DNA of 62,294 nucleotides from Lentisphaeria bacterium (GTDB lineage Bacteria > Verrucomicrobiota > Lentisphaeria > Victivallales > UBA1829). Numbering within the stretch: position 1 is the stretch's first letter; every line of letters begins with the position of its first letter. Location: the NCBI GenBank assembly GCA_017455665.1, contig JAFSZN010000115.1, forward strand, positions 1-62,294, given 5' to 3'. A program made the position numbers and the translations under genes. The notes under the pieces are model-generated. The model did no database searches. It was not told where the DNA came from and worked only from the letters and a program-made list of their open reading frames with translations. Positions 2,622 through 48,980 of the stretch are shown one piece after another.

Positions 2622-2865
2622 TTGTGTTTCCTTATTGATTGGCTGTTTGCCGTTGAAAAATGCGTGAGCCGCGCCCGTTTCCGCCTCAGTTATGATTTGC
2701 GGAAAAAAAACATCCATATAATATACAGCATTTTCCGGAAATAACCAGTCGTTTCCCTGCCTTTTTACAGAGTTTTTCGCGCACGGGTGCCCCCGATGCC
2801 CGCGCATGGAACGGTGCACGGGCATCCCGTTTCCGGAAAGAAGGATTTGTTGGCAGGGTGCGTTT

Positions 2866-8478: not shown

Positions 8479-8510
8479 TAAAAATGGCGGAGAGAGGGGG
8501 ATTCGAACCC
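8479..8510. repeat. att core repeat (integrase-proximal): 6 nt plus the last 26 nt of tRNA-Ser
   Basis: TAAAAATGGCGGAGAGAGGGGGATTCGAACCC is identical to 48550..48581. The flanking bases differ on both sides (8478 g vs 48549 a; 8511 a vs 48582 c). Confidence 0.95.
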
Positions 8511-16521: not shown

Positions 16522-17094
16522 TCAAGGTTCCGAAGACGCGGGGACGTCTTCGGTCGATTCCTTCGCGTTTTCCACTGCCGCGCGCAGAACCTCGGAGACG
16601 GCGCGGATCACGTCGCCCACGTCGCCCGTGTCGGTCATGGTGATGCTCACGAACTGCTTCTTCGTGATGCTCTTTGCGTTCCAGATGCTTCCCGTGCTTT
16701 CGCTCCGGTACATGATGCTGTTCGTTCCGCTTTTCGCCGTGGCGAGGTCGCCGGAAACAAACGTGGTATGGATGCCGGGAATTTTGGATTCGGGATCGAT
16801 GCCGACGCTCGACTGTACGAATGTGCCGTTTCCGGTCACGTTTTTCGTGGCGATGCCCTCGGCCAGTTTTTCGGTCGTGCTGCACCCGGTCAGCGAGCAG
16901 ATCGCGAAAATCGCGATAACGAACAGAAGAACAAGCGCAAGGCCGCCCCACTCGAAGCGGTCGGACGGAGCCTTGTTTTCGAGGTGCGGAACATCCGGCA
17001 TTTCGCCGTTTCGTTTCCTGTTGGAATTGACAGTCGCGGAAATCACGGCGGCAAAGAGGGCGGGATTAACCATTGTACACCTCCCAATCTTCAA
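16522..17094 (-). CDS. phage lipoprotein (lipobox LTGC)
   Basis: GGLALVLLFVIAIFAICSLTGCSTT signal/lipobox. The true start may be the internal Met at 17001 (MPDVPHLEN...). Confidence 0.6.
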   Translation of the reverse strand: MKIGRCTMVNPALFAAVISATVNSNRKRNGEMPDVPHLENKAPSDRFEWGGLALVLLFVIAIFAICSLTGCSTTEKLAEGIATKNVTGNGTFVQSSVGIDPESKIPGIHTTFVSGDLATAKSGTNSIMYRSESTGSIWNAKSITKKQFVSITMTDTGDVGDVIRAVSEVLRAAVENAKESTEDVPASSEP

Positions 17095-17359
17095 ACAGGA
17101 TGTCAGACTGTGAGGCGAGCCATCCGGTCAGGATCGCTTTTCTTCCCGTGCTGTCGTGCGTGAACATGCAGATCGTTCCGAGCGCGAGGATTTCCCCGCC
17201 GTTTTCCTCGACGAGCTGTTTCAGAACGGGATCGTGGCAGATTTCAGCCGGGATTTGTGCGGCGGGTTTCAGCCAGAGGAACATACCCTTGCCGTTCCAA
17301 CCCTTGCGGGTCACTTTTTTGCCCTGTTTCAGGGCCTCGATTGCTTTTCCGAAGTCCAT
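17066..17359 (-). CDS. DUF2829-family protein (Tad2-like)
   Basis: MDFGKAIEALKQGKKVTRKGWNGKGMFLWLKP is the characteristic DUF2829 N-terminus, and the protein is 97 aa. Confidence 0.65.
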   Translation of the reverse strand: MDFGKAIEALKQGKKVTRKGWNGKGMFLWLKPAAQIPAEICHDPVLKQLVEENGGEILALGTICMFTHDSTGRKAILTGWLASQSDILFEDWEVYNG

Positions 17360-17373
17360 AATGGTCTCCTGTT

Positions 17374-17607
17374 TTAGTGTTTGAAGAATGCCGCATACGC
17401 GGCGATTCCGGTGGTTAATGCGTAGCCGAAAACTTCAATGAGAGTCCAGACAAGGCCTGTTCGCTCTTCGAGTTTTGCCACGCGGGAAACAAGCCCCTCT
17501 TCGCCATTCCCGTTGACTTTCTTGTCGAGTTTTTCAACGAACTTGAAGATTGTCTTCAATTTCTCGTTGATGGAAGAAATGGTTGATGTGAGTTCCTCGT
17601 TTGTCAT
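17374..17607 (-). CDS. holin-like small protein (coiled coil plus C-terminal TM)
   Basis: 77 aa with a C-terminal GLVWTLIEVFGYALTTGIAAYAAFF. The holin call is positional and topological only. Confidence 0.4.
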   Translation of the reverse strand: MTNEELTSTISSINEKLKTIFKFVEKLDKKVNGNGEEGLVSRVAKLEERTGLVWTLIEVFGYALTTGIAAYAAFFKH

Positions 17608-18002
17608 GGTTCCGGCTCCCGCAGTTTGCCGTTTTTATATGCTTTGTACCCGAAAAGCTGGCACAGAATCCCGGCGATCACGCCGTAGGGAATCAGAATC
17701 AGCCGCCTGTCGTAAACAGCGAACAGAAAAACATTCGTGGCCAGCCGGATATTGGCGTCCGTGAACATCCCGTAGGATTTGTATTCACGGGCGAATTCCC
17801 AATCATGAATCAGTGCAGCCGGCGCGAAAGGACGGAGAAGATACGAAACGAACTTTCTCACCCATTCCGGCCAGTCTTCCGGCCCGATTCCATTCCATGC
17901 CCGACACAGTTCTTCCATTGGCCGCGTCCAGAATTCAGGCGGCGCACTCGCGCGGATTTTGCAGCACAATTCCCATAGGAATCGAACTTCTCTTTCGCTC
18001 AT
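17604..18002 (-). CDS. hypothetical phage protein, DUF1353-like (HD motif plus C-terminal TM)
   Basis: GPEDWPEWV...PAALIHDWEF...TDANIRL resembles DUF1353 from my recollection. ATGA coupling at both ends. Confidence 0.4.
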   Translation of the reverse strand: MSEREVRFLWELCCKIRASAPPEFWTRPMEELCRAWNGIGPEDWPEWVRKFVSYLLRPFAPAALIHDWEFAREYKSYGMFTDANIRLATNVFLFAVYDRRLILIPYGVIAGILCQLFGYKAYKNGKLREPEP

Positions 18003-18343
18003 TTGACCTCGCTCCTTCCGAATTTATAGAAGTTGTCGATTTTTCGAATGACCGCCTTGAACATCCTCGGTTTCGTCTTGTCGCGCGCCGCCTCGTATGC
18101 CTCGATTTGAGAAATCAGCACATTGGAACCCGTGAACACGATATGATGCTGGCCGTTCCGTTCAAATTGAAGCGTTAGGCATTGTTCGTTTCCGGGCTTC
18201 TTGTGCTTGCTCGGACGGATTTCCCATCCGGTAAACACCAGCGGCACGTTCAGGATGCTGTCAATGCTCACTTTCGTACCATCCAGCGTCTCCCGGTCCG
18301 GGATGACGTCGGCAATCTCCGGGATGTCCGCGATGTCAGTCAT
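17999..18343 (-). CDS. hypothetical phage protein (114 aa)
   Basis: Start MTDIADIPE (rc cat 18341-18343) overlaps the upstream stop at 18336-18338. Confidence 0.5.
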   Translation of the reverse strand: MTDIADIPEIADVIPDRETLDGTKVSIDSILNVPLVFTGWEIRPSKHKKPGNEQCLTLQFERNGQHHIVFTGSNVLISQIEAYEAARDKTKPRMFKAVIRKIDNFYKFGRSEVK

Positions 18344-18941
18344 TGATGAAGAACTCCGACCAGTTCCGCCCGTTGCTTTGCGCGTCGACGTTGGCCAGCA
18401 CGAAGCGGAGCGTGTAGGACGCAATATCCGCAGCACTCATGCCGTTGTCTTTCGCGAAATCCATCATCATTTTGCTGTTGAAATAAGACGGCAAATCTTC
18501 GCGGGTCTTGTGAACGACGGCACACGCCTCGTCCACGAGGTCCCAGAAATCTTTCTTGACGTCATTCCAGCGCGCGATTCCTTCGGGCGGGTCAGACTGG
18601 CCGGGCTTGCGGATTGCATTCTTGACGGCGAGGATGTGAGCGGTTTTTGTGTGGTCGAATTCCATATCCGCCTGTGCTTCCGCCGAGCCGTAGAAGAATT
18701 CACGGACTTCCTTGTAGCTCTGCCGGACGCACTTATCGAAATCGCTGGTGTCCTGCCCCGTGTAGCGCACGGGGACGCGGAAGAAGCGGAAAGACGTTGC
18801 TTCCTCGCGCTGGACTTCCCGGACGAACATCGGGATGAAGAGCGTGTTGCCCTCGCGGACGATTTCCGGCATGGTGTCGGATTCGGTTTCAGGGAGATGC
18901 TTCGTCTGCATTCCTGCGGGGATGGTGTCGTTCATGTGCAT
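18336..18941 (-). CDS. hypothetical protein translationally coupled to the DGR RT (201 aa)
   Basis: Start MHMNDT (rc cat 18939-18941) with a GGAGG RBS inside the RT 3' end. Overlaps the RT stop (18932-18934) by 10 nt. Confidence 0.55.
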   Translation of the reverse strand: MHMNDTIPAGMQTKHLPETESDTMPEIVREGNTLFIPMFVREVQREEATSFRFFRVPVRYTGQDTSDFDKCVRQSYKEVREFFYGSAEAQADMEFDHTKTAHILAVKNAIRKPGQSDPPEGIARWNDVKKDFWDLVDEACAVVHKTREDLPSYFNSKMMMDFAKDNGMSAADIASYTLRFVLANVDAQSNGRNWSEFFIND

Positions 18942-19969
18942 GGTAATACCTCCAGTTGGTGAATTGGTTTGTCGAAGAAGGAATACCAGAACCGTTTCGA
19001 CCGGGAAATCCATTTCACGATTCCCCAATAGCTCGAAAGCGTCGCCCGGTTTCTGGCGGTTGGTTTTTCTTTGTATCGAGTTACCGCACGGCGAAAACGC
19101 CGTTCGGTTGTCCTGCGGAGAAAGATGCAAGTTCGGGTGAAGACGTAGCCCAAGAAATCTATGCCGCCGCGCTCAATGGGATATACCTGTTCGGCTGCTT
19201 TGAGTTTCAGGCCGAGTTTGGCGAGGTATTCCCGCGCGTAGGCGGCAAAGTCTTTCATTTTCTGTTTCGCCTTGTCCTTGATTCCTACTGCGAGCGCAAC
19301 AAGGTCGTCAAGGTATCTGTGATAACCCTTGATGTGGAACTTTTCTTTCGCGGCATGGTCAAGGCGGGTCAGGTGCAGATTCGCCAGCAGCGGACTGATC
19401 GCGTTTCCGATGGGAATCCCGCGCGGAAAACTGTCGATGATGCGGAACATAAGCCGCTGTGTCTTCCGCTCCTTGATAGCCCAGACGATATCATCTTTCA
19501 GCGGTTCGTGCTGGATGCTGTCGTAGAAATGATATACGTCGTCCTTTTTGACGTAGCAGGCGGAATCTGCCGGGACGCGGGAAAGGAAATCACGAAGACG
19601 GCGAACGCCGTCATGTGTTCCCCGCCGCTTGATGGATGCGTAGGTGTCGCGAATGAATTTCTTCTGGATTTTCTTTCCGAGCGTCCGAAGAATCGCGTGT
19701 TGCACTACGGAATCTTCATGTACCGGGGAATAGTAAATCTCGCGCCGTTTGCCGCGCTCGATGCGAACCATTCTCCGGTACGGGTGCATAGTCCAAGTTT
19801 CCGCCGCAAGTTCATCGTGAAGCCGTTGAAGATTCTCTTCAAGATGCTCCTCGTACTCGTTGGCGGCTTTTCTCCGATGCGGTTTCTTTGCGCGTTTAAC
19901 CTCAAAATGTGCCGCGCGCAGATTATCCACGGAGATTATGTCCTCGAAAATGTACCCGATTCGTTTCAT
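18932..19969 (-). CDS. diversity-generating retroelement reverse transcriptase
   Basis: 345 aa. RT motifs include KRREIYYSPVHEDSVVQHAI, TYASIKRRGTH, GIPIGNAISPLLANLHL, RYLDDLV and FLGYVF. Lies 118 nt downstream of a TR that has a matching VR. Confidence 0.9.
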   Translation of the reverse strand: MKRIGYIFEDIISVDNLRAAHFEVKRAKKPHRRKAANEYEEHLEENLQRLHDELAAETWTMHPYRRMVRIERGKRREIYYSPVHEDSVVQHAILRTLGKKIQKKFIRDTYASIKRRGTHDGVRRLRDFLSRVPADSACYVKKDDVYHFYDSIQHEPLKDDIVWAIKERKTQRLMFRIIDSFPRGIPIGNAISPLLANLHLTRLDHAAKEKFHIKGYHRYLDDLVALAVGIKDKAKQKMKDFAAYAREYLAKLGLKLKAAEQVYPIERGGIDFLGYVFTRTCIFLRRTTERRFRRAVTRYKEKPTARNRATLSSYWGIVKWISRSKRFWYSFFDKPIHQLEVLPCT

Positions 19970-20086
19970 TGTTTTGCCTGTGCGTAAGTTCGCCCAACTT
20001 ATTCCAGCGAGGTACTAAAGTTTTAGCGGGCCACCTCAATCCACCTGTATCGACGGTGCAGGGTGACGAACTCCAATCTGTCTTGT

Positions 20087-20210
20087 GTAGCCAGCCGGGC
20101 CCCGATGTTCGCGTTCGAGTTCGACAACGCGTTGTTGACGTTCGCGTAGCCCACGCCATCGTTAGCCCCGTTGTTAGCGTTCCCACCGAAGTAAACGACA
20201 CGCGCACCGG
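20087..20210 (-). repeat. DGR template repeat (TR)
   Basis: 124 nt, matching VR at 109/124 positions. All 15 mismatches are A on the coding (minus) strand of TR. Conceptual translation is Asn(AAY)-rich: GGNANNGANDGVGYANVNNALSNSNANIGARLA. Confidence 0.92.
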
Positions 20211-20233
20211 AACCGGCTGAAGTTCGCTCCCCG

Positions 20234-20264
20234 CCCTGCATCCCGCTTAGAGCGGAATGCAGGG
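20234..20264. other. strong hairpin between the target-gene stop and TR
   Basis: CCCTGCATCCCGC - TTAG - AGCGGAATGCAGGG, a ~13-bp stem with one mismatch. No T-run follows on the coding strand. Confidence 0.6.
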
Positions 20265-20316
20265 ATTTCGTGTTTCGCTTTTCGTTTCTCGCCCCTTTCG
20301 CCCCTTTCGCCCCACG

Positions 20317-21885
20317 TTATTCGTTTTCGCCGGACGCAGCCAGCCGGGCCCCGATGCCCGCGTGCGAGAGCGACAACGCGTAGTTGACGCCCGCGTAGCC
20401 CACGCCATCGGCAGCCCCGGTGCCAGCGTGCCCACCGAAGTAAACGACACGCGCACCGGCGTTAGCATCATTGTACACATAATCACCGAAATAAGTGTCC
20501 GCTCCGCCGCCAATCGTAATGGCAAAGAAGCTGTCCGTGTCGAACGTCTTGATGTAGCCCGCCGCTTTCGGCCAAGCGTGGTTGACCCACGCGTAGGAGT
20601 TACCCGTGTAGCCACGGGACGGGAACTTTTCGCCCTGCTGCCATGCGCCCATGTCGCTGTCGCAGTTGGAATAGATGCTGATGTCGTTGGTTGTCCAGTA
20701 GCCCGACTGCGAATAATCGTCCGCGGTCGCGTTCTGGTACTTCTGGCATCCGTCCGCAAATTCCCACTGTGCCGCCCACGGATTTTCAAGGCCGCGCCAG
20801 TTGAACGCCACGACGCGGCTTCCGCTGTTGTTCCAAATACTTCCGCCGTCCTTCATGGTGAGAAGGTCGAGGTCAAGCCCCGTTTCTTCCGTCTCGTCTG
20901 CGGTGACTTCGCCGTTTTGAAGCCCGAATGTTGCCGCGCGTCCGGTCTTGCGGAGCGAAGCGTAATCCCATGCGGAGCAGTTCGCGAAGCCGAAGGAAAT
21001 GGCCGCCTGACTGTTGAGATTGCCGCCGTCAATGGCGACCATGAGCGTCAGCCATTCGCGGAAAAGCATGTTCGTCAGGTTGCCGTGATTGTTCCCCGCC
21101 GCCGTGCGGAACGTTGCGCGGGTCATGGATCCTGCCGGGCGGTAGCCCATAATGGAGCGGAGACGGTCGCCGGAAGCAAACGAAACCGGGGTGCTTTCCG
21201 CGCTCTGCGTCTTCGGGGTTCCGGTCGAATCCGTCAGGACGCCTTTGAACATGCCGACGTACTGAACTTGCGCCGTCGCGCCGCCGCTTCCCGTGAAGAA
21301 CCACGGATGCGGAGCGGAATCAACGAACTGTTCGTTCGAAACGAGCCAGACGACAGGATTGTGGCCGCTTCCGTCCGTGTAGGTGTCCTTGCGCCAATAG
21401 GTGATCGGGATTCTCAACATGAAGTCCACGAGCGTCGTGCCGCCGCCGCTTTCCGTCCAGATTCCTTTCTTCTCGTTCTCGGTCAGCGCGGTGCCGTCCG
21501 CCTTGTGTGTGCTGTCGGAGACATCGAGGAAGCATTTATTCACGCCGTTTTCAAGGTCGCGGAGAACGCCTTGAAACGCATGCGCCGGGGTCTGCGCGAA
21601 ACTGTCGACTGCGTGATACCGCAGCGCGGTTGATGCTCCGGCGAAGTCGTAGGCGTGGTTCAACACGACTTTCGTGCCAGCCGTCGCCGTTGTTGCAAGG
21701 TCGAAGTCCAGCCCGTACACATACGCGCTTTCCTGCGATCTGTTGTGAAGCGGAACGCCGCCCTGTGTCGCGCCGTCGCCATAGTAAAGGGCTTTTTCGT
21801 CCTTATCGTAAAGGACCTCACCCGCCAGCGGGATTCCCGCCTTGCGGTCTTCGGATGTTGCTTTGGGTACTCCCCACTTTGCCAT
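20317..21885 (-). CDS. DGR target: Mtd-like receptor-binding tail fibre protein with C-terminal variable region
   Basis: The N-terminus AGEVLYDKDEKALYYGDGATQGGVPL resembles the Mtd_N/fibre motif. The C-terminus ARVVYFGGHAGTGAADGVGYAGVNYALSLSHAGIGARLA is the VR, a C-type-lectin-fold style VR ending 17 nt before the stop. Confidence 0.88.
   Translation of the reverse strand: MAKWGVPKATSEDRKAGIPLAGEVLYDKDEKALYYGDGATQGGVPLHNRSQESAYVYGLDFDLATTATAGTKVVLNHAYDFAGASTALRYHAVDSFAQTPAHAFQGVLRDLENGVNKCFLDVSDSTHKADGTALTENEKKGIWTESGGGTTLVDFMLRIPITYWRKDTYTDGSGHNPVVWLVSNEQFVDSAPHPWFFTGSGGATAQVQYVGMFKGVLTDSTGTPKTQSAESTPVSFASGDRLRSIMGYRPAGSMTRATFRTAAGNNHGNLTNMLFREWLTLMVAIDGGNLNSQAAISFGFANCSAWDYASLRKTGRAATFGLQNGEVTADETEETGLDLDLLTMKDGGSIWNNSGSRVVAFNWRGLENPWAAQWEFADGCQKYQNATADDYSQSGYWTTNDISIYSNCDSDMGAWQQGEKFPSRGYTGNSYAWVNHAWPKAAGYIKTFDTDSFFAITIGGGADTYFGDYVYNDANAGARVVYFGGHAGTGAADGVGYAGVNYALSLSHAGIGARLAASGENE
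20336..20459 (-). repeat. DGR variable repeat (VR)
   Basis: Offset +249 nt from TR. It differs from TR only opposite TR plus-strand T positions 20088, 20108, 20109, 20115, 20120, 20121, 20133, 20141, 20142, 20162, 20163, 20171, 20174, 20175 and 20181. Confidence 0.92.
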
Positions 21886-21925
21886 TTTTGCACCTCTTAT
21901 GTTGAGTTTTTGAGTTGGTTTTCTG

Positions 21926-22174
21926 TTATGCCGAGGCCGTCCACGCGCCGAACATCACGGTGTTGCCATCGTCCCAATCCGTCCAGTCGTTGCAGATGTA
22001 GGAACCCATGAGGATTTCCCCGCCCGCCTGAATGATTTGAACGGCCTCTTCCAGTGCAGTCAGACGCGCTTTCGCGCTGCTGATTTCCCCGGTCACGCCG
22101 AGGTATTCCATTTGATTCATTACGGTTTCATTCAGGATAAAATCCCGAATCGGAACCACGTCGCCCGTTGCCAT
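21926..22174 (-). CDS. hypothetical tail-associated protein (82 aa)
   Basis: ORF in the fibre gene cluster on the same strand. Confidence 0.45.
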   Translation of the reverse strand: MATGDVVPIRDFILNETVMNQMEYLGVTGEISSAKARLTALEEAVQIIQAGGEILMGSYICNDWTDWDDGNTVMFGAWTASA

Positions 22175-22175
22175 G

Positions 22176-22421
22176 TTACACCCCCGCGTTCAGGATTCTG
22201 TCGCTGCCGTAAGTCAGCGTCGTCCGGTCTGCCCAGTTGCCGACCGCCCAAGTGATCGTGTGCGTATTGTTGTCGATTTTCTGGATGACGCACGGATCAT
22301 TGTAATCCCCGCGGAGATAGGTCACGCCGGGCGTGGATGTGCTGTCCCACTCCACGGCGATGAACTTGTCCGCGCCGTAGTTGATGCTGTCCGGCGTCCG
22401 TCCGAATTTGTCTTTTTGCAT
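22176..22421 (-). CDS. hypothetical tail-associated protein (81 aa)
   Basis: ORF in the fibre gene cluster, 1 nt from the next gene. Confidence 0.45.
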   Translation of the reverse strand: MQKDKFGRTPDSINYGADKFIAVEWDSTSTPGVTYLRGDYNDPCVIQKIDNNTHTITWAVGNWADRTTLTYGSDRILNAGV

Positions 22422-22446
22422 GGTTGTTGTCTCCTATGTTGGATGG

Positions 22447-23658
22447 TTAATCGAGGTCGTCGTAGGGGAAAGGCGGCGCGGTCAGACTTACGCTGTGGTC
22501 GAATTTTACAAGGACCTCGCCCACCCAATCCCCGGATAGCGAATACACCTTGAAATCTGCCCCCATTGGAACCGGAAGGATTTGAGTTGCACCACGGAGA
22601 CAGCCAGAGCCACCGCCGCCCGCGGATTGCACATCAAACAAAGCGATTTCAACCCCGCCGATGGAACACCTTAAACAATCCAGTCCGTTCGCGGATGCGT
22701 TTTTGAGAGAGACGCGCAAATAGCCGTTATCCATTGCATAATACTTTGAACCGGAGCCAAGATTTGTTGTGGATGTAATCGTTGAAGTATTATTGCCCGC
22801 GCTGAAAATATAGTTATAGGCCGCGCCTGTTAGGCTTCCGTAATTCGGAAACTGCATCCCACCACCGCCGCCCGCGGATGCGACAGCGGAATCAATGACC
22901 TGTTGTTTCGTTGCGCCCTCCAACTTTGACGCGGATGTTGCACTGTTCACCGTGGAACTGCTTGCGGACGCGAGAAGTTGCGCTTTCGTTGCACCGCCTA
23001 CACGCGTCGCGCTCGTTGCGTACGTTGCGCTGTTCACCGTGGAACTGCTTGCGGACGCGAGAATCTGCGCTTTGGTTGCGCCGCCGAGATACTGCGCGCT
23101 CGTTGCAAAGGTCGCGCTTCGCACGACAAAATTGCTGTCGAGTGCTTCGGCATAGCCAGCCGATTCTACCCAAGTAATCGCGCCGCCACCGCCGCCACCG
23201 CCGCCCATGCCGGAAATGATGTCGCGGATGGAATCCAATGGCGTCAGCGTCCCGGACTGGCCGTAGGGGATTTTATAGCACAGTTTCACGGTTTCGTGAA
23301 GTTGCTGGATGGCTGCCGTGTTCTGGTCAAGTTGCGTTTCCAGCGATTCGCTCGGAATCTTTCCGAAGTTCGGCAGGGCTACGCGCTGCGCCGGGACCAC
23401 GGAACGGATGATGGTGAGTTTCCCGTTCGCGGGCTGTTCGGTCAGCAGGGTAATCCGCGCGCCGTTCTCGTAGTCCGTTGTGCCGGGTTTCAGGCCGACA
23501 GAAAAATCCGTCCCGCTGTTCAGCTGGTATTCCGTACTGGTGTCCGGGTCAAAGACGTAACAGGACACATCGGCGGGGTCGAAGATTTTTACGCCGAAAT
23601 CAAACACGGTATCCGTGCCGATTACGAACTGCTCTTTTACGATTGGGGATTCTAACAT
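22447..23658 (-). CDS. tail fibre protein with 29-aa Ser/Ala/Thr repeats
   Basis: 403 aa. Contains a GGGGGG linker and the repeats ATKAQILASASSSTVNSATYATSATRVGG / ATKAQLLASASSSTVNSATSASKLEG (87-nt DNA period, about 22925-23100). GGAG RBS upstream. Confidence 0.7.
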   Translation of the reverse strand: MLESPIVKEQFVIGTDTVFDFGVKIFDPADVSCYVFDPDTSTEYQLNSGTDFSVGLKPGTTDYENGARITLLTEQPANGKLTIIRSVVPAQRVALPNFGKIPSESLETQLDQNTAAIQQLHETVKLCYKIPYGQSGTLTPLDSIRDIISGMGGGGGGGGAITWVESAGYAEALDSNFVVRSATFATSAQYLGGATKAQILASASSSTVNSATYATSATRVGGATKAQLLASASSSTVNSATSASKLEGATKQQVIDSAVASAGGGGGMQFPNYGSLTGAAYNYIFSAGNNTSTITSTTNLGSGSKYYAMDNGYLRVSLKNASANGLDCLRCSIGGVEIALFDVQSAGGGGSGCLRGATQILPVPMGADFKVYSLSGDWVGEVLVKFDHSVSLTAPPFPYDDLD

Positions 23659-23703: not shown

Positions 23704-26700
23704 TCATTTATTTCCGCCGTTTTCCTCGTCTCTGTTGAAGAGTTTCCAGATGCGTTTCCCCTGCGTCGCAAGGGCGGAAACCGCCGTCCCGATAGGTCCG
23801 GCCGGCGCGTACCATGCGCCGATTGCCATGCCGATGTCTCCGGCTGCCTTGATGCCGTCCATAGCCTCGTCCGCCGTGATTTCATCGTCTCCGGCCAGTT
23901 CGATAAGGTTGGAAACATCCCGCTCGATATCCTCGGCCAGCGGCACGGCGTTGAACGTGGACTTCACGCTGGACTTGCCGCGGATGATTTTGTCGGCGGC
24001 GATATTGACCAGTTTGTTTGCCAGCTGGAAATACAGGACGCCGCTTTCAAACGGGCCGAACAGCCACGCGATAAAGTAGTCCTCGATTTCCGCATCATCG
24101 AACACGTCAAGCCCGTACCGGAGCATATCCGTGACGAACTGCATCATGGTCGGGACTACGATGTGGTTCACGAGCAGCTGCCGCGCCAGTTTCTTCTTGG
24201 CCGCCGCCTTGTCCTCTCCGTATTTGAGTTCCCGGAGCGTCCGAAGTTCGAGGTTCATAAGCTGGATGGGATTCGCGCGGAACGCCGTGAGATACCGGAT
24301 TAAGCCCTGATTCTGCTGGAAATAGTTCAGGTCTTTCAGATACCCGCTTTGCTGTGTCTCGTCCGTTGCCCGCATCCATGCCCGGCGCGCTGCGCGCTCT
24401 GCCTCGGTTTCATTAAGGCCGCGCTGCTTCGCCTGTTCCTTCGCGTACTGGTAGACGGCATATCCGCCGTGAAGCGCGCTCCACACGTCCGCCGCTTTGG
24501 TTCCCCATGTGGAAGCCGCCAGAATCGCGTCCATCATCGGGCTGTACTGCTTGCTGTCTTTGGCGTCGCTCAACATGTAAATCAGATCGCGGTCGAGGCC
24601 GCCAGCTTTGCGGTTCTTGATGTAGTCGGAATCTTTCGCCCAGCGCACGAACTCGCGGAAATCCTTGTTCGTAAAATTCGCTTTAGAAAGGTTTTTCACG
24701 AACGGGATAATCGGCACATCGTTTGTGTAGGACAGGACGCCGAGGCCCTGCTTGATGATGCTGGAAAGGTTGACCGCGATTTTCGCCGGGACCCAATAGC
24801 GGTACAGTTCGTTGAAGATGTACTTGTTGTACCACTCGGACGAAATCATCTGTCCGCCGCGCGCCAGCGTCCCGATTTGCTCCACGATTTCCCGCGTCAC
24901 GTCCTTCCCGAAGTTGTCGTTGATTGCTTTCTGGACGCGCTGGTTGCCGTACACTTCCCGGAGTTGCCGGATGGTGTCGGACCACGCGAGGAAATGTGCC
25001 TGACCGATTTGGTTGTTGAAGAACGTCGTGAACGCATCCGCATCCATATCCAGCGGTTTCAGGTGGAATCTGCGCGCAATAAGGAAACTCGGATTTATGG
25101 TCATCATGCCCGCGCCGCGCGGCCCGCTGGTCGGTTCGTTGGCCATGCTTCCACGGAACACGCCCGGCCAGTAGTTCGGATTCTTCGGCAGATGCGCGCC
25201 GTATCGGTTGTAGACTTCCGCATCCAGAGCGTCGCGGTTCTTCGCGATATAGTCGCGCATCCATTCTCCCAACTTCTTCGTCTCCGGTTTCAGGAACTTT
25301 TTAATCTGCTCAATGCTTTCTTCCGTCCAGCCGTTCCAGAGCATGTTCGGGCGGAAATCTTCCTGTTCCCACGTCAGTAGGATTTGAAGCGCGGAGCCTT
25401 GTGAAAGCGGGACTTCCACCTTCGCCGCGCTCTCGTTCGCTGCGTGGCTTAGGAGCATGATTTTGTACGTCCCTTCTTCCTCTTGCAGTTTGTTATAGGC
25501 TTCCTGATCGCCTTTATCCGTGAAGACTTCATAAGTGCGCTTGATTCCGGCGTCATAGTCTTCCAGCTGCTTCCGCAGGAAGAAAACACCTGTTTCGTCC
25601 AACAGCAGTTCGCGCGTCCCGCCGAGTTTGGTGGGAATAAGCGCGGGTTCGCCGTTCTCGATTGCCCGCAGGATGCTACGCGCGCCCGGCATCTTCTGGC
25701 CCATGTATTCGTAATCATCCACAGGGACCATTTCGCGGACGACCTTGCGCCGCTGTCCTTCCGTAACGGCGGCCTCGTCCACCTTGACAATGCGGGAATA
25801 CTCCGTTTTGAAAACTCCGGTCTTCTTCGTAACGGTCTTCATTTCGCGGAGCAGTTTTCCCTTCTTCCGCATCTTGGCCAGAACGTTTCCGGTCACCCCG
25901 GCGTAGTCTTCCAGCGCGGCGTCAAAGTCGTTTTGAAGCCGTCTTGTGCTGGTCTGTTCCGTCTGGGTGCTGTCCTCGATTCGGTTCCAGAGTTTTCCCG
26001 CATAACTGTCGTCAAAGTCCTGTATGGATTTCCCGGACGCGATCCGCATCAAGTTCGAAAGCGAGGATGTTTTCAGCATGTAGGTCAGATGATTCTTCGC
26101 GTCCGAGTTGTCGGGAACATAGTTTTTCCCGAAAGTCGCGTCATCAATCGCCTGTCTGCGAAGTTTCTCCGCCTCGGCAAACCGCGCGCCCAACTGTGTT
26201 TTTAGGTCGATTTTGCCTTTCTTGATAAGGTTTTTCAGCATGTTTTCTGCTGTCTTCACCTGTTCGACCGGGAGATAAGGCAGATTCCCGAACATTTCCA
26301 GAAGCGCGTTGTCCTCGGTGTGCTGCTTGATTTCCGCCTCGATATCCGCGCGGTCCTCGTCAGCGGAAAGGCTGTCAAGTTGCATTTCCAGCGCGGCGAT
26401 TCGCTCGTTGTTGTAGTCCACGGCGTTCGCAACCGTCGCAGGATTCATGTCGACGATTTTGCGGATACGGTCAACGTGCGCCTGTTCGCTCGGAATGATG
26501 CTCACCGGAATACCCTTCCAGTTCCGTTTCATCTTCGCGGCGTCCAGCATTTCCCGGATGTTCTCGATGCTCGTTTCCGCGCGCTTCTTCTTGCTCGCCG
26601 TCAGGATGTCGTCCATGAGTTTGTGATACATGGCCAGACGCTTCCCTTCGGGGTATTTCTTGGTCGGGCTGGTCCCGTATTCCAGCAGCCGCACGATGCC

Positions 26701-29700
26701 GCGCGTGAATTCTCCGCGCAGTTCTTCGGGAAGATGCTCTTCCGCGAACTTGATGGCGTCGCGCTGTAACTGCGCCGTCTTCGCGTTTCCCTTCAAGAAC
26801 TCGTCGCGGAGTTCGCCCAGACGCTTCGAAAACTCTTTCCACGAGGCCGCGCGGGCGTCCTTGTACGCCGCCGCATATCCTTCTTCGCGGCCCTTCTCGT
26901 TTTGAAGCGCGGCGTTAATCGTTTCAAGGTTCAGTTCAGACGGCTTTTTGCTCTTCGGCGGTTCCTCTTCCATGAACTGCCTGTAAAGTTCATTGAACAC
27001 ATCCGGGTTTGCCTCGGCGTACTCCGGCGTAATCGGTTCCCCGCGAGAAATCAAATCCACTACGGTGTCCTCGACTTCCGCCTGTCTGGTCGCTTCTCGC
27101 TCCGCTTTCCATTCCTCTTCCGCCTGTTTGTCACGGAATTTTTCCTCTTCAACGTGTTTTTTGTACGCGGCATAGAGGTCGGGCTTTTTCAGGTAACGGA
27201 ACGTCTCAATCAGGGCTTCTTCGATATCCAGCGGGTCGCCGCCGTATTTATTGGCGATTTCCTGCGCCAGTTCGTCCGATGCTTTCCCGTCCGCGTGAGA
27301 CAGGGCAATATCACGATTCCGCAGATATTGACTGTACCGAAGTTCGCTTTCGCGGTTCCCGCGCGGCCTCTTCTTCCCCTTTTCGCGCCATTCTTTCGCG
27401 ATAAACGTGCCGGGCCATTCGTCCGCATCGTCAAAGCGCATACTCGGACGGATAACGATGTCAAGGCCGCCGTATCCCGTGAACTCCTGCGCCTTGTTAA
27501 TCATATCGTAGTTTTCAAGAATCCACTGGTCGCGCGCCCGTTCTTTTGCCTTTTTCTTCTGCGCGGCGATTTTTTGCTTCTCTTCCTTGATTTCCATTCC
27601 GGCCATTTGGTACAGGCTCCAAGCATCGTTCTCGTCATCAATTTGGATTCCGAGCGTGCCGAGATAGAATTTGACCTGGGACGGCTCCACAAAATCCGCG
27701 CCCTCGTACTTCGGTTTCAGGATGGCGACAATATCCCGCTTATCCTCGTCGCTCATGCTGTCGAGGCTGAAACGGAGTTTCTTTTCCTGCGTCACGAATT
27801 GAAGCGTCGCCTTTCGCGCCGCATCGTTCGCGTAGGTGAACACGTCTACGCCAGCCTCTTCCAGCGCGTTCAGGATATCTTTCGCCGTACCTTCCGGCAC
27901 GACTGCCGCCTTGAACTCGTTGAGATAAACGGCCCGCTGCGGTTTCGCCTCGAAAAGCGGCGTCGGCAAGTCGCGGAGTTTCAGCAGGAATTCAGCCATG
28001 TCCTTGTAGATCGGGTTGCTGAAATTACCCAATGCCTCGGTAAGCCATTCCCGGTTCTCCCCCTTGTTCGGACCTTCCGCCATGGCGCGGAGTAAATCGG
28101 CTGCCGTATCGTACGACGGGGAAATGTGGTCTCCGGTGATGTTCGCGTTGATGTGGTCCAGCAACTCGTTGAATTCCTGCGTGACATCCTCTTTGATTTT
28201 CTTGTAGTCTTCGCCGGAAACGATTTTGTCGCGGTTCTTTTGGATTTCCGAAATACTCTTGAACTGGCGGGCCATGTTCGCGCGGATGTTGCCGACGCCA
28301 TAGAAAAATCCCTCGCTGTCCTTTACTTTTCGCGTCATAAGCCTGACGATGGTTTCGAGGTTCGCGGGCAGATAACGCCGTCTTCCGGAATTTGTGAAGC
28401 CGTCAAAAATACGTTCGTCCGGGTGCAAATCCAGTTCCGGTTCTGCCACACGAATCCACCAGTCGGCGAAATTCTCGTCACCGTCGCGGGTGTCGACGTA
28501 CCAGTTCCGCACCGCGTCCGCGTCCTTTAGATCGTCCACGAAGTCGTGGCTCGTCATACCGCTGCGGTGCTTCTTGACGATGTACTGGATAGAATCGTGT
28601 GAGTCGGGCTCGTTCAGCTCGTGCGGCGCGATAACTTCCAGAGCGCGATCGAAATCCTGCTCCGTGTAGTTCCGCTGGATTTCAGGCCGGCGCACAGAGT
28701 AGATGTCCGCGTTGAAAACCTTGTTCTTCGGATGCTTCGGGTCAATCAGATCCCGGTCGCCCACGAGCGTGATGCGCCCGTAGTCCGTGAAATCGCTCTT
28801 CTCCGCGTCAATGATTCCCAGAGACGGCACGGGAAGCGCGCCGAGTTTGATGGCGTCCCGAAGTTTCTGTTCGCTCACGTTGTGAACGGCAATCAGATTT
28901 TCGTCTTCTCCGGCCAAGCTGAAACGGATATGCTCGTCTACGCGGATATCCTTGTCAGAAAACGCCACATAGTTCCGAGAACCGGAAGCGGTTCCAATAT
29001 AAGTTACCCCATCAATTCCAGCGCGATATAAAAATTCACTCGCGGATTTCGGTGAACCAAGCAACTCTGAAAGCATATCGTAATTATAATCAAAATCACG
29101 ATAATGGAACATATCATCCGGCAAGGTGATATTTTCTTTTTTCGCCTGTTCCTTGATTTGGAATCGTTGTGTAGCATTGAATCCTTCTTCCCAATAGATA
29201 AGATTTTGATTCCGATTAGGCCAGAAAGTCTGTTTATAAAGATTCTTTTTGTTCTCGATGACGGGATTATATGTCAAATTTCCTTTCTCTACCAAATCAA
29301 AAACGTCAAGAGCGGCAGCGCGATAATTTTCAAGGTCTTGCCCCGTATAGAATCCAACAACACGTTCGGCTGCTTTTTTAATATCAGGTTTACCGGAAGA
29401 TGAATACAGATTGTATGCATCTTGTCTTAAAACGCTTAAAATAATATGCAGGATACGGCTATCATATTCATTTTTATGCGGAGCGGAATCGTAAAATTCC
29501 GTCAGATTATCTAAAGGTTTTCCATTATAGTAAATGTATCCGGTTCCAAATTTTCTATTATAGTCTGCTTCTGCGTAATCACGCCCGACATCCTCGCTGG
29601 AAGAACCGTACAACCCCCACCCGTAGACTTGATTTCCTTCACCCGTCCCGACATAGTTCAGGCTCGGCTGGTCATAGTCCGCCGCGCTTCCGGTATAGAT

Positions 29701-32700
29701 AGGGGAAACGCTGAACCGCGTCTTGATGACGTCGCCTTTTTCCAGCCCGAACGATTCCAGATCAATCGCGCCGCCCTTCCGCTTATACGGTTTCCGTCCT
29801 GCTTTTTTCAGGATTTCTTCCACGTCGGCATCGTCAAGGATGCGCGTCACCCTCATGGCCCCGGTAATCATCCATGCTTCCGTCTTCGGGTCTGGGTTCG
29901 TCCGGTAGCGATAGAATCCGTCTTTCGGGACGCGCGGCAGTCCGGCTTTCGCGTGTTCGAAATTCCCGTTCTTGTTATATCCGTAGCTCATGGCCTCTTG
30001 CTGATAGTCCACGTCTGCGGCAATCTCGCACTCCGCCCACACGAAATTATCCGGGAAAAGGTCCTTTTCTCCTGTTTCCGGGTTTTTCGTCATAAACTGG
30101 TTCGCAACCGGGACTTCTCCAAGATGCCAGCCGGGACGATAGGCAAGTGTCTGTTTTCCAACGTTCGTTCCCTTGCCCCCGGCCTGTACCCGTTTCCGCC
30201 CCGTTTTGCTGTCTGCCGCGCGCGGTGCGGCGTCCGCGTTGAGCCAGATGCCGACCGGGGTAGATTCGCCGCCCGGATTTGCCACCATCGGCGGGAACAG
30301 TTCGCCCGGCTTACTCTTTTTTACTGCGAAAACCTTATAGCCCTTCAAGGTCTTCTTCGGCGGGTCTTCCTCGCGGATGCTGAAACGCACGTCCTCACCC
30401 GTTTCCGCCACGCTGAAACGAACAATCTGGTCTTCTCTCGGAACGTCCTCTGTCTCGCTCGGCGCGTGTTTGCGGTTGAATTCGGGATCGCTCCGCATTT
30501 TCAGATTCCGCATTTCCACGTTCCGCGCCTCGACTTCTCCCGCGCTTCTGCGATAACGGCTGAAATCGCTGGAAAGATATTTCATGCGCGCGTCAAGGGT
30601 GTGCAAATCCGTTGCCAACCACAGGAACGCGCTGAAATTATGAAATCTGTTGTCGGCGTTTTCGGGGACGGTTTTCTTGAAAAGGTCTGCCGCGTGTTGA
30701 TAGAAGTCGCGGTTCCCCTTGAAAACATCACGTTGAAGCCAGTCGTCAATCGTCCACAAGAGGCCGTACCCGCTGGGAATCTGGTCGGTCAGGGCCTTAA
30801 ATTCGTCATGCTTCCGGTTATATTCCGTCTTGGCTTGAAGAAATGCCGGGTCATCGTAATCGGTCATGGAACGGACGGAAACAAGATTCTGGCCGCCGGA
30901 GAATCCTTCCATGTGCTGAATTGCGTGCTGAACTTCATGAACAAGCACATTGTTGATACTTTCCTCGAAGTCTGCAAGCAAGTCCTTGATATTCGCCTCG
31001 ATGCGCGCGGCCTCTTCCGGCGTTTTCGCGTCGCGTTTGTCCGCTTCCATATCGTTCAGCGCGTCAAAGTCGTGGTCGGTCAGAAGCGTCTTGTTGATGG
31101 CGATAATCTTGTTTTTCTTGTCGTGATACCCCGCTTCCCCGCGAGGAAGCGGGACTACGGCGATACGGTATTGTTTCAGGTCGGGATATGCGCTGAAAAG
31201 TTCCGGTGCGCTGAAATATCCGTCCACAGGGCCGTCATAGTCGATCAGGGCGTTATAGTTCCCGCCCGCGGTCAGTTCGTCCGTTTTCAGGCGCACGTCC
31301 GGCGCTTCCATGCGCCAGTAGGTATCTTTCCCGCGTTCCCATCCGGTCGCCGCCCAGATTGTTTTCCGGTCGAATCCGGCCTTTTCCATTTCTTTCGCGC
31401 GGTTCAGATTGTCAAGATTCATCTGCGCTCTTGTCGCGCCGTCTTCCCCGATTAAGGCAAACCGGATATGTTCGTCTACGCGGATATCCTTGTCGGAAAA
31501 CGCGACATAGTTCTGTTCGCGGGACGAATCCCCGATGTACGTTATACCGTCAATCCCGGCACGATACAGGAATTCACTCGCTGCTTTGGGCGAATTGAAT
31601 ACGTCCGCAAGCTGTTTGTAGACATATTTCCCTTGTGCCTCGTAGAAATCAAGATATTTTTCCAGATAATCGCGCATCACGTCCGGCGCATAATAGAATT
31701 CTTTTTCGAATTCTTCCCCGTCAATCGCCGCGTCAACGCCGCGCTCTGCGTTTACATAATCAATCAGGCGGGGATTGTCATGCTCTTTCGCAAGGGCGTC
31801 AAGAATCTGGTTTGCCTGTTCTTCGGGAATAGTCTCATCCCAATCCAGCAGATTTTCTTCCTTGTCCGGCCAGAACGTTTGTTTATACAGGTTGTGCGGC
31901 TTCGTTTCCTCGATATCGGTAATCTCGATTTTCGACAGCACGTTTTCTGCTGCGGCAAATGTCTGTTCGCGGTCAACCTTTTCACCGAGGAATTTGGAAA
32001 AATTCAGATTGTCTTCCGTCTGTTGATACAGTTCGTTTTCAAGGTCGGCGCGGCTGATTCTGTTTCTGCGTCCGTAGATAATGTTCCAAGCCATTCGGAG
32101 AATGGAACGTTCTTCTTCGGAAAGATTCGGGAAGGATTTTTCGTCAATATCGGTCTTGTTTGAGATTGGAACGCCGTCAAAGACGAACTTGCGGAGCGTC
32201 CCGATTCCTTTTCTGTCAACATCGGTTTCCGCATACCACTCCGCAACCCCGCGCGAGGTGCTTCCGTACAGCCCCCAGCCGTACACTTGCGCGCCCTCTC
32301 CGGTGCCGACATAGTTCAGGCTTGGCTGGCCGTAATCCGCCGCGCTTCCCGTCCAAACCGGGGAAATGCTGAAACGTGCCGCGCCGGGATTCTTGCGCTG
32401 TGCGCGCATGGCGCGCGCGGATCGCATCAGCGCGTGTTCGATATCGGCGTCAGAGAAATGGATGTTCGGAAAGACCTTCCGCAGGAAGTCGCGTATTGTA
32501 GAAAGAAATTCTTTCCACCAACTCGGTTTGACATTCGATTCTGCAATCCTCGCCAGATATTCGTCCGCAAGATAACGCTGTCCTTCCACGGTTTCGTCTG
32601 TCGTGTTGTAAAGATCGGAAAGGCCGATTTTCGCAATTTCCTCGTGATGCGTTTTATACACGTCGTCAAGAAAACTGTCAAACTTCTCACCGAAAACGCG

Positions 32701-36149: not shown

Positions 36150-36737
36150 TCACCCCCAGATGCTTCTTCCCCAAAGTCCATTGGATTTCAGTTCGGCGCG
36201 CTGCGTCACATAGTTCCCGGCGATTCCGGCCACTTTCCCGGTCGTTCCGGCTGCCTGTCCGACCAGAGACAGGGCAAGGGAAGAACCGGACGGCTTTTGT
36301 GCGCGCGCGACGCCAGCCTGATACTGGTACATTTTCGCCTGTTCCCTGTGGTTCTGAACAGCCTGATACCCGCCAACATGCGCGTCCTGTACTTTCAGTT
36401 CCTCGTTCATGGCCGTTGCGCCGAGGATCGCCAGCGGGCTTCCGCTGGTCATGGCTGCGCCGGATTTGCCGAGTAAAGCCCGCTGCTGGGCTTTCAGGTA
36501 TTCGCTTTGCTCGCGCTGCCGCCGCGCGTTTTCATCGTTTTCCCGTTCCAGACGGCTCGCTTCGCGCTCTTCGAGGCGTTTATTGTATTCGGCCTGTTCC
36601 GCTTGCATTTCCGCATTGGCGCGCGCCTGATTGTGCTGCTGGATGCCAGCGACGCCGCCGACCACACCGCCGACGATTGCCGTGGTTGCGGCCACCGCCG
36701 TCGCGATTGTCAAAGCTGTACCAAGTGAGATAGCCAT
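36150..36737 (-). CDS. internal virion protein, gp14-position (N-terminal TM plus coiled coil)
   Basis: MAISLGTALTIATAVAATTAIVGGVVGGVAG TM segment followed by a charged coiled coil. The call is positional. Confidence 0.55.
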   Translation of the reverse strand: MAISLGTALTIATAVAATTAIVGGVVGGVAGIQQHNQARANAEMQAEQAEYNKRLEEREASRLERENDENARRQREQSEYLKAQQRALLGKSGAAMTSGSPLAILGATAMNEELKVQDAHVGGYQAVQNHREQAKMYQYQAGVARAQKPSGSSLALSLVGQAAGTTGKVAGIAGNYVTQRAELKSNGLWGRSIWG

Positions 36738-48549: not shown

Positions 48550-48581
48550 TAAAAATGGCGGAGAGAGGGGGATTCGAACCC
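48550..48581. repeat. att core repeat (tRNA-proximal)
   Basis: Identical to 8479..8510. Forms the 3' end of the intact tRNA-Ser. Confidence 0.95.
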
Positions 48582-48647
48582 CCGGTAGAGTTTGACCCCT
48601 ACGACGGTTTAGCAAACCGTTCCTTTCGGCCACTCAGGCATCTCTCC
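48556..48647 (-). tRNA. tRNA-Ser (anticodon GCU), 92 nt with encoded CCA
   Basis: rc = GGAGAGA-UG-...-ACGGU UUGCUAA ACCGU-long variable arm (GUAG..CUAC)-GGGGG UUCGAAU CCCCC-UCUCUCC-G-CCA. The cloverleaf folds by hand. Confidence 0.93.
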
Positions 48648-48980
48648 GCTACAGTTCAAAAGGTATGTTTTATACTATACTCCGTTTTCTGGTAAAATCA
48701 AGGCGCTTTCCCAAAAAAAAGCGAAAATGAATGCTTGATGCGGTATCCATCCGCGTTGAAAGGCTGCCTCATTCATCAAATCTTTTCCTGTACGCCCTGC
48801 AAATAAAGAAAGGTCCCGACTTGACTTTTCTTCAAAAAAATGCTAAAGTATTTTTGTGTCACTCATTGCAACATTGTTCCCTCCCGTTTGCCGACCGGAT
48901 GTGGAGATATGCCGGAAAAGAAACGACCGGCGCCGTCCGTCCTTCTCGGACAGCCGGTGCTTTTGTCATAAGGACTAGAA

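Follow-up and report, generated by a model that had tools for sequence, protein, structure and literature searches.

The question raised by this locus, which lies in a 62,294 nt stretch of contig JAFSZN010000115.1 (the window) from a Lentisphaeria bacterium, is whether it holds a diversity-generating retroelement (DGR), whether the set of parts recognised in it is complete, and whether the element is active. A first-pass annotation, made from the sequence, described a complete DGR that diversifies the tail fibre of a phage. In our assessment, the locus is, with a probability of roughly 0.95, an active DGR borne by a podovirus-like temperate prophage that resides in a Victivallales bacterium from the rumen, with differences between assemblies from separate samples as the evidence for activity. 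The repeats, the spacers and the genes considered below between 17999 and 21885 are on the minus strand.

The template repeat (TR) and the variable repeat (VR) had been described as 124 nt repeats differing at 15 positions, each of them a TR adenine. Base-by-base realignment of the minus strand (TR, 20210 to 20087; VR, 20459 to 20336) gave the same result, with 15/15 differences at a TR A (A to G, eight; A to C, five; A to T, two) and none at the 99 positions that are not A. As the TR includes 25 adenines, the hypergeometric probability of all 15 mismatches falling on A is 4e-13. A repeat search returned an ungapped repeat of 122 nt (TR, 20089–20210; VR, 20338–20459), and the fifteenth mismatch (A at 20088 in the TR, G at 20337 in the VR) lies at the outermost edge of the homology, at a site that is G in every relative examined. 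Hence, judging from the sequences, this site is more likely to mark the boundary of the repeats (IMH versus IMH*) than to have been hit by mutagenesis, and only 14 of the 15 positions first thought to be mutagenised were retained. The more robust count is, thus, 14 mismatches among the 24 adenines of the core (P = 2e-12), with the TR/VR mismatches confined to TR adenines as in known DGRs. The TR is rich in AAC, and nine of its ten AAC codons are altered in the VR, with all 14 core mismatches at position 1 or 2 of AAC codons. The TR and VR translations match those originally given. The final ~40 residues of the target protein are encoded by the VR, and 18 nt separate the VR from the stop codon; a spacer of about 127 nt lies between VR and TR. 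A GC-rich 3' end (GGGGCCCGGCTGGCT) is common to both repeats, which diverge past that point. A search of the window for a second VR found none.

The reverse transcriptase (RT) gene (18932–19969), correctly identified at the outset as encoding a 345 aa protein close to the TR, starts 117 nt past the last TR base (20087). The RT matches Pfam RVT_1 (1e-11) and phrog_1423 (3.5e-79), and its best match in the PDB is the Bordetella phage RT, bRT (8ub7_A, 4.5e-23), whereas the strongest match to a group II intron RT is at 1.4e-13. The YLDD catalytic box aligns with the YMDD of bRT, and the protein adjoining the TR is, thus, on sequence grounds an RT of the DGR clade with a YxDD box. A motif 4 signature, [ILV]GxxxSQ, is commonly cited as specific to DGRs. 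In the window RT this motif is IGNAISP and not the canonical IGxxxSQ. Among 121 aligned sequences (120 homologues and bRT) SQ was found in 73, one of which is bRT, and SP in 47. As A-only mutagenesis is retained in the RT subclade with SP, the SQ of motif 4 is not strictly defining of DGRs. In a search of NCBIfam, the top match of the window RT, which is sub-threshold, was a group II intron maturase model.

The target, a 522 aa tail-fibre or receptor-binding protein that carries the VR near its C-terminus as first proposed, is encoded by the ORF at 20317–21885 and matches phrog_5302, annotated as 'tail protein' (3.7e-36). An AlphaFold2 (AF2) model (pLDDT 88) was compared to the PDB using Foldseek, and the first match was TaqVP (5vf4, 1.8e-10), with Mtd (1yu0–1yu4, 1e-8 to 1e-6, best 1.7e-8) and then FGEs and TvpA following. 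The model, thus, supports a C-terminal C-type lectin (FGE-like) fold closest to those of TaqVP and Mtd, and places the VR, with the TR adenines at codon positions 1 and 2, at the 3' end of a C-type lectin ORF, as in other DGRs. The description of the target as Mtd-like holds at the level of the predicted fold only. In the Foldseek alignments, the target and the Mtd structures have TM scores of 0.23–0.32 and share 10–12 % identity, and a phmmer search of all PDB chains with the target found no Mtd match at E ≤1. The Mtd_N-like N-terminus that had been reported corresponds to a match to Pfam Mtd_N (PF18454) that covers only residues 17–40 and scores 17.5 bits (E = 0.0038), below the gathering score of 26.3 bits. 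One homologue (P0009) has a precomputed match to PF18454.

Though phage genes are indeed present, as the first-pass annotation had assumed, they belong to an integrated Victivallales prophage and not to a free phage genome. The prophage (8479–48581, ~40.1 kb) lies in a tRNA-Ser(GCT) gene and is bounded by a 32 nt direct repeat (8479–8510 and 48550–48581), the second copy of which is the 3' end of the tRNA (48556–48647). The flanking bacterial genes encode UvrA, SHMT, VanX and Blc, and the prophage genes include those for a T7-type portal, a capsid, a gp3 small terminase, gp14-like and Bbp19-like proteins and an integrase. Related viral contigs are 39.7–40.0 kb long, and in its portal the prophage has no more than ~31 % identity to any catalogued phage.

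This prophage extends the phage-borne DGRs to the rumen Victivallales. It shares with the temperate phage BPP-1 (mtd-avd-TR-brt) podovirus-like hallmark genes (T7-type portal, gp14-like, Bbp19-like), a C-terminal C-type lectin domain of a tail-fibre protein as the target, a TR just 5' of the RT gene with a structured spacer between them, A-specific mutagenesis at AAC codons, and an RT whose closest solved relative is bRT. It differs from BPP-1 in its Victivallales host, in the short gap between VR and TR, in the SP of RT motif 4, in a target that shares the fold of Mtd with no detectable sequence homology and has TaqVP as its best structural match, in a gene downstream of the RT gene that belongs to a family here called p114, and in the lack of avd.

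Synthesis of cDNA in BPP-1 needs Avd. A search of the 50 ORFs in the window using the Avd profile (PF05635) found no match, a weak negative in that the presumed avd-position ORF of a distant locus (L007) was also missed by Pfam Avd. VR and TR are just 127 nt apart, and TR and RT 117 nt. An avd gene is typical but not universal, being found in 74 % of DGRs, and 29 % of DGRs are catalogued without an accessory gene (Wu et al. 2018, PMC5758913). The cassette in the window matches the known Avd-less 'architecture A', and by description is like Architecture A1/Lineage 3 of the same study, with target, TR and RT on one strand and no avd, HRDC or MSL. [quoted passage not shown] Hence, though TR, VR, RT and target are all present, the element called complete in the first-pass annotation has no detected Avd, and a conserved RT-associated gene at 17999–18343, outside the coordinates given there, is probably also part of the cassette.

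That gene encodes p114 (114 aa, pI 7.9), which was modelled by AF2 (pLDDT 89.5) as five strands and one main helix in the order β-β-β-helix-β-β. The model has no significant match among PDB folds, and its best matches in BFVD are parts of phage RT proteins. The p114 family includes 1084 representative clusters; the median length is ~100 aa and the median pI 7.8. In 94 of 97 IMG/VR loci the p114 gene lies no more than 653 nt from a DGR RT gene and on the same strand, and in these its start usually overlaps the RT stop codon. The order VR-TR-RT-p114 was found in 75 of the 76 loci with a detected TR/VR pair, and in at least 13 proteins p114 is fused to the C-terminus of the RT. The gene is directly 3' of the RT gene in the archaeal virus ANMV-1 and in a Methanosarcinales virus.

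Avd is a basic protein of ~128 aa (pI ~9.5) that forms a four-helix bundle and assembles into pentamers. Like Avd, p114 is small (~100–130 aa) and encoded in the DGR cassette, and in two loci (L106 and L202) its gene occupies the exact position of avd, between target and TR. However, p114 is predicted to be β-rich with a single helix, has a pI of 7.9 (family median 7.8) and has no Pfam or PDB fold match, and the possibility that p114 is Avd was rejected. The gene order in ANMV-1 (Paul et al. 2015, PMC4372165; KP703175) is similar to that in the window, with target (adtA), TR and RT followed by a p114-family ORF (AJP62065.1, 98 aa, 38 % identical to p114 of the window, E = 4e-7), and its target is also a tail-fibre-associated C-type lectin protein. 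It differs in that ANMV-1 is an archaeal virus and its p114 gene starts 3 nt past the RT stop codon with no other gene between them. The ORF downstream of the RT gene is not discussed in that paper; according to its figure legends, the ANMV-1 cassette has an ORF named 'Avd', and Avd-like ORFs lie between RT and target in nanoarchaeal DGRs.

From its gene neighbourhood, its fusions to the RT and a predicted fold with no informative structural match, p114 is a candidate accessory factor, most likely a partner of the RT in the handling of RNA or cDNA in an Avd-less lineage. We see about even odds that the family is an unrecognised and widespread DGR accessory module of bacterial and archaeal viruses that replaces Avd in 'architecture A'. 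A less probable but still serious reading is that the DGR is real and p114 is a passenger or a phage late gene, the RT acting alone or with a host factor. The proportion of DGRs catalogued without an accessory gene is consistent with this, as are a relative (L090) that has an RT 55 % identical to that of the window and A-biased repeats but no p114, the gene that parts p114 from the RT in the window, the three of 97 p114 loci without an intact RT, and a predicted fold that offers no clue to function. Against this reading, one of those three loci (L193) keeps an RT remnant, and p114 neighbours the RT gene on the same strand in 94/97 loci, the stop and start codons of the pair overlapping in most. 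The linkage is kept on podo-, myo- and sipho-like backbones and in archaeal viruses, in three gene orders, and that p114 has repeatedly been joined covalently to the C-terminus of the RT is hard to explain for a passenger. The mechanism of DGRs that lack Avd is a recognised gap, and the p114 family provides a concrete candidate for the missing partner. If p114 is such a partner, the question of Avd-independent mutagenic retrohoming (Wu et al. 2018, PMC5758913) would become directly testable, and a compact two-protein or single-fusion system could be available for engineered hypermutation. Existing reconstitution assays are suitable, and p114 could simplify DGR-based directed-evolution tools.

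The intervening gene (18336–18941), the start of which overlaps the RT stop codon by 10 nt, encodes an acidic 201 aa protein (p201, pI 5.1) for which family searches returned no matches. Homologues lie 3' of the RT gene in several relatives. However, in three phages that lack an RT (L098, L100 and L102) the p201 homologue directly follows the target homologue, which argues against a DGR-specific role, and p201 probably belongs to the tail-fibre region or phage backbone. The CH1 class of proteins that flank Avd-less DGRs is also acidic (pI ~4.7), but at 160–169 aa its members are shorter than p201, and the likeness is by description only (Wu et al. 2018, PMC5758913).

Whether the element is active was addressed by comparing the window with near-identical phages from three other metagenomes (L001, L002 and L003). 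Their TRs are 100 % identical to that of the window and the 1400 nt upstream of the VR is 97.1–99.9 % identical, whereas the VRs are only 82–85 % identical. The VR-versus-TR mismatches on A number 19/19, 18/20 and 15/15, respectively, and the VRs of these phages differ from one another at TR-A sites only, bar two sites in one sample. When five VR variants were pooled, all 24 core adenines were found to be substituted at least once, as against 2 of the 98 other positions. An invariant TR is, thus, accompanied by a variable VR in the population, and the differences between VRs in otherwise near-identical target genes indicate that the element is active, as the first-pass annotation had claimed. 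TR/VR pairs are also present in all nine of the more distant relatives (L005/L093, L006, L089–L092, L094, L096 and L099; RT identity 41–85 %), with 92–100 % of the mismatches on TR adenines. Though the DGR itself is one more well-documented example, the evidence of natural activity across four samples is unusually clean.

It is very unlikely that the VR was diversified in the past by an element that is now inactive. Each assembly includes one VR sequence per sample, and DGR activity can be low in lysogens such as the one that carries this integrated prophage. However, the RT ORF is intact with its YLDD box, and the TR is perfectly conserved in four samples while the VR differs at 14–19 A positions in targets that are otherwise 97.1–99.9 % identical, a combination for which retrohoming must be ongoing or very recent. 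One member of the cluster (P0052) has the exact VR of the window, and the remaining members each differ. An alternative in which the fibre gene's 3' end was tandemly duplicated or recombined and then diverged through chance or selection, beside an unrelated RT of retron or group II intron type, is effectively refuted. Direct repeats are common near tail-fibre genes and the sub-threshold NCBIfam match is to a maturase, but the mismatches all fall on one base (probability below 1e-11), the A-only pattern recurs in at least nine relatives of differing sequence, bRT is a nearer relative of the RT than any retron or group II RT is, and an Rfam search turned up neither intron RNA nor retron msr/msd.

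By analogy with BPP-1, the active DGR would operate through an RNA intermediate that primes its own copying from the spacer and a cDNA that homes to the VR. A minus-strand RNA spanning the TR and the structured ~118 nt spacer would be transcribed and then reverse transcribed by the RT, with fidelity lost only opposite adenines, where any nucleotide could enter the cDNA. At the 3' end of the gene for the tail fibre, this cDNA would then replace the homologous VR, with the direction set by the GC-rich 3' end common to both repeats and the sequence that diverges right after it. Randomisation would affect some ten to twelve residues of the C-type lectin domain, on the face that binds the ligand, with no stop codons created because the adenines are in the ten AAC codons at codon positions 1 and 2, and through these residues the phage could re-tune receptor binding.

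The spacer between TR and RT (19970–20088) probably forms the 3' portion of the DGR RNA, and a role in priming is suggested by that of its counterpart in BPP-1. An alignment of ten relatives analysed with RNAalifold includes a conserved CACC/GGUG hairpin (20055–20058 with 20042–20045) and a helix formed by 20018–20022 and 19996–20000, and the GCCC near the 3' end of the TR (20097–20100) pairs with GGGC at 19992–19995. Positions in these helices are paired in 87.7 % of cases, compared with 34–47 % when the partners were slid, and in one helix four of the five pairs include compensatory changes. An Rfam search of this spacer returned no match. In the VR-to-TR spacer, a GC-rich hairpin of 14 bp (20234–20264) lies ~72 nt downstream of the end of the VR, farther than in BPP-1, and may serve as a target-site hairpin, as a terminator or as the 5' boundary of the TR RNA; it is not followed by a T-run, and a terminator scan made no call there. 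The sequence of this hairpin is not conserved, but RNAfold predicts a strong hairpin at the matching place in all nine of the relatives folded.

Base-by-base comparison of the template repeat (TR, 20210 to 20087 on the minus strand) with the variable repeat (VR, 20459 to 20336) gave a gapless alignment of 124 nt with 15 mismatches, and at all 15 the TR base is an adenine, replaced by G in eight cases, by C in five and by T in two. With 25 adenines among the 124 TR bases, the probability that all 15 mismatches would fall on A by chance is 4e-13 (hypergeometric). A separate repeat search returned a 122-nt repeat (20089-20210 and 20338-20459), and the 15th mismatch (TR 20088, VR 20337) lies at the edge of the homology, where every relative carries a G. 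This position is treated as the putative TR/VR boundary; when it is set aside, 14 of 24 TR adenines are changed (P = 2e-12), and the A-only mismatches reported in the first-pass annotation therefore stand with or without it. All 14 core mismatches are at codon position 1 or 2, and nine of the ten AAC codons of the TR are altered in the VR. No second VR turned up when the window was searched with a TR made degenerate at each adenine. A 72-aa ORF (20023-20241) spans the TR and has been annotated as a gene in relatives; it is the translation of the TR and was rejected as a protein gene.

Variants in the 90 % identity cluster of the target, the 522-aa tail-fibre protein, are near-identical except in the last ~40 residues, and the contigs of three of them, each from another sample (L001, L002 and L003), were compared with the window. 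All three match the window exactly over the TR and both spacers, and at 97.1-99.9 % over the 1400 nt upstream of the VR, but their VRs share only 82-85 % identity with that of the window. Mismatches between each VR and its TR fall on A in 19 of 19 cases in L001, 18 of 20 in L002 and 15 of 15 in L003. When five variants were pooled, all 24 core adenines had been substituted at least once, compared to 2 of the 98 other positions. The two differences at non-A template positions, G to A and T to G (matching window positions 20201 and 20176), were found in the L002 VR in one sample, and may reflect either ordinary mutation or rare errors made by the reverse transcriptase (RT) at non-A positions. 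More distant relatives, with RT identities from 85 % down to 41 %, all have TR/VR pairs with mismatches almost entirely at TR adenines. The population signature to which the first-pass annotation had pointed, an identical TR accompanied by VRs that differ at TR adenines between samples, is present, and as read from these alignments the pattern shows recent or ongoing mutagenic retrohoming.

The RT (18932-19969, minus strand, 345 aa) matches RVT_1 and the phage RT family phrog_1423 (3.5e-79). Its closest solved relative is bRT, the Bordetella phage diversity-generating retroelement (DGR) enzyme (8ub7, 4.5e-23), and group II intron and retron RTs rank behind it (~1e-13). The YLDD of the RT aligns with the YMDD of bRT. 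Motif 4 (19381-19401, minus strand, residues ~190-196) reads IGNAISP, where the canonical DGR form is IGxxxSQ. Among 121 aligned sequences (120 homologues and bRT), 47 have SP and 73, including bRT, have SQ. A-only TR/VR differences are retained in relatives with SP and, hence, SP is a trait of a subclade rather than a defect. An RT-based scan of genome contigs gave no match.

The target (20317-21885, minus strand) belongs to the phage tail-protein family phrog_5302 (3.7e-36). Though it had been described as Mtd-like, its match to Mtd_N is weak and below threshold (E = 0.0038) and no sequence match to any solved structure was found, so that the likeness to Mtd, the target of the Bordetella phage BPP-1 DGR, holds for fold and role and not for sequence family. 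In a Foldseek search, an AlphaFold2 model built from 40 homologues (mean pLDDT 88) matched TaqVP (1.8e-10) and Mtd (1.7e-8 to 9e-7) best, both of them DGR variable proteins, with formylglycine-generating enzymes and TvpA ranking next. The predicted fold is that of a C-type lectin, as expected for a DGR target. Taken together, the A-only mismatches, the bRT-like RT, the modelled target and the VR diversity confirm the earlier identification of a real and active DGR acting on the C-type lectin tip of a prophage tail fibre.

The 127 nt spacer between VR and TR holds a purine-rich tract (20285-20315, minus strand) in which the unit GGGGCGAAA occurs three times in tandem and which lies between the target stop codon and a 14-bp hairpin (20234-20264, minus strand). 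A strong hairpin of different sequence occupies the equivalent position in nine of nine relatives. The spacer between TR and RT is conserved across ten relatives, and in it RNAalifold predicted a CACC/GGUG hairpin, a 5-bp helix in which four pairs show compensatory changes, and pairing of the GCCC at the 3' end of the TR with a downstream GGGC. Of the cells in these helices, 87.7 % are paired; sliding the partners lowers this to 34-47 %, and the covariation score was reached by none of 500 shuffles. Based on ten related sequences only, this RNA structure is suggestive and, by analogy with the BPP-1 DGR RNA, the region probably positions the priming site. Rfam gave no match in 17500-22500, which includes this spacer, and a promoter and terminator scan found nothing that exceeded shuffled expectation.

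Two genes follow the RT on the minus strand, p201 (18336-18941, 201 aa), which overlaps the RT stop codon, and p114 (17999-18343, 114 aa). The usual DGR accessory protein, Avd (PF05635), was not detected using Pfam in the ORFs neighbouring the DGR, in 50 ORFs of the window or, at 21 p114-positive loci, in 136 ORFs surrounding the RT. However, a 169-aa ORF at the avd position of a related locus (L007), intended as the positive control, was also negative. Hence, the Pfam result is weak, and the absence of Avd rests mainly on the lack of room for it between VR, TR and RT. The DGR is of the known accessory-free, Avd-less 'Architecture A'. Wu et al. 2018 (PMC5758913) assigned 29 % of DGRs to this class and proposed an Avd-independent mechanism for it. 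Alone, the element is ordinary, its minor peculiarities being the SP motif and the Victivallales host; its added interest lies in p114, whose RT-linked family provides a testable accessory candidate for Avd-independent DGRs.

The acidic p201 (pI 5.1), with its overlap of the RT stop codon, was considered as an accessory and rejected: in three phages that have neither RT nor TR (L098, L100 and L102), its homologues (6001-6606) directly follow a target homologue, marking it as a probable fibre or phage backbone gene. The TR-RT unit thus looks like an insertion between a fibre gene and p201, its usual downstream partner.

In contrast to p201, p114 tracks with DGRs. Distant homologues (35-45 % identity) adjoin DGR RTs in phages whose backbones are unrelated, and the gene order takes three forms, namely RT-p114-p201 in a Baseplate_J phage (L091), RT-119aa-XkdX-p114 (L103) and target-p114-TR-RT, i.e. 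the avd position (L106). In a further locus (L108) p114 overlaps the RT, and all four have A-biased TR/VR pairs. When p114 alone was used, as two narrow alignments, 97 IMG/VR loci were retrieved. In 94 of them a DGR-type RT lies no more than 653 nt away on the same strand, and p114 mostly starts in the interval from 29 nt ahead of the point where the RT match ends to 24 nt beyond it. A-biased TR/VR pairs were detectable in 76 loci, with the order VR-TR-RT-p114 in 75 and a median VR-TR gap of 85 nt. The three contigs that include no intact RT (L193, L151 and L175) may be decaying DGRs; an RT remnant is present in L193 (4318-4482). A C-terminal p114 domain is fused to the RT in 10 of the 120 RT homologues and in library proteins P0402, P0438 and P0448, and RT proteins with this fusion were the closest matches of the p114 model in a viral structure library. 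Among annotated phage records, a p114-family ORF directly follows the RT of a Methanosarcinales virus and that of the published DGR of archaeal virus ANMV-1; the ANMV-1 ORF (AJP62065.1) is left undiscussed in the ANMV-1 paper (PMC4372165). One related RT-bearing locus (L090) is without p114.

In all, 1084 representative clusters make up the family, and their median length is ~100 aa. The protein is not Avd, has a near-neutral pI and matches no Pfam or PHROG family. In its model (pLDDT 89.5) three strands precede a helix and two follow it, and Foldseek found no significant PDB match (best E 0.38); hence an OB fold is not claimed, only a similar strand order. The accessory classes named in DGR reviews are limited to Avd, HRDC, MSL and CH1, and the literature searched gave no earlier account of this family or of a beta-rich, OB-like or new DGR accessory, though a prior description is possible. 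On this comparative evidence of linkage and fusion, p114 very probably works as a partner of the RTs in this DGR clade, and its family is a candidate for the accessory factor still missing from Avd-independent DGRs.

The DGR lies in a lower-GC block flanked by bacterial genes (an RpiB-SHMT ORF, VanX, UvrA and Blc). A 32-nt direct repeat (8479-8510 and 48550-48581), corresponding to the 3' end of tRNA-Ser(GCT) (48556-48647), delimits a predicted prophage of ~40.1 kb, matching related viral contigs of 39.7-40.0 kb. The flanking UvrA is 90-95 % identical to those of rumen Victivallales/Lentisphaerae MAGs, and the window is a bacterial contig with rumen Victivallales-like flanks, not a free phage. 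The prophage encodes portal (T7-type), capsid, small terminase (gp3-like), internal (gp14-like) and Bbp19-like proteins, together with integrases, a dUTPase and a Tad2-like protein. The portal shares only ~31 % identity with that of any catalogued phage, and megablast against the phage collection gave no DNA-level match to the DGR region.

A 3602-aa ORF (23704-34512, minus strand), downstream of the gp14-like gene (36150-36737), encodes a 'polyvalent protein' that combines an LPD23 domain (aa 1027-1074) with a PBECR5 Barnase/EndoU-like nuclease domain (aa 1869-2007) and occupies the place of a T7 gp16-like ejected internal virion protein. The 97-aa Tad2-like protein (17066-17359, minus strand; PF11195, 6.8e-22, annotated as a Thoeris anti-defence sponge) is encoded just downstream of the DGR and lysis-like genes. 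Immediately beyond the tRNA-Ser, a low-GC block (48700-53300, 0.47-0.48) holds a 1027-aa ORF (48981-52064) and a 381-aa ORF, neither with an NCBIfam match, and could represent another integrated element or else a defence island. In the host flank, the 641-aa RpiB-SHMT ORF (900-2825, minus strand) joins an RpiB domain (aa 83-224) to a full serine hydroxymethyltransferase (aa 237-638), and represents a gene fusion or else an ORF that was extended too far.
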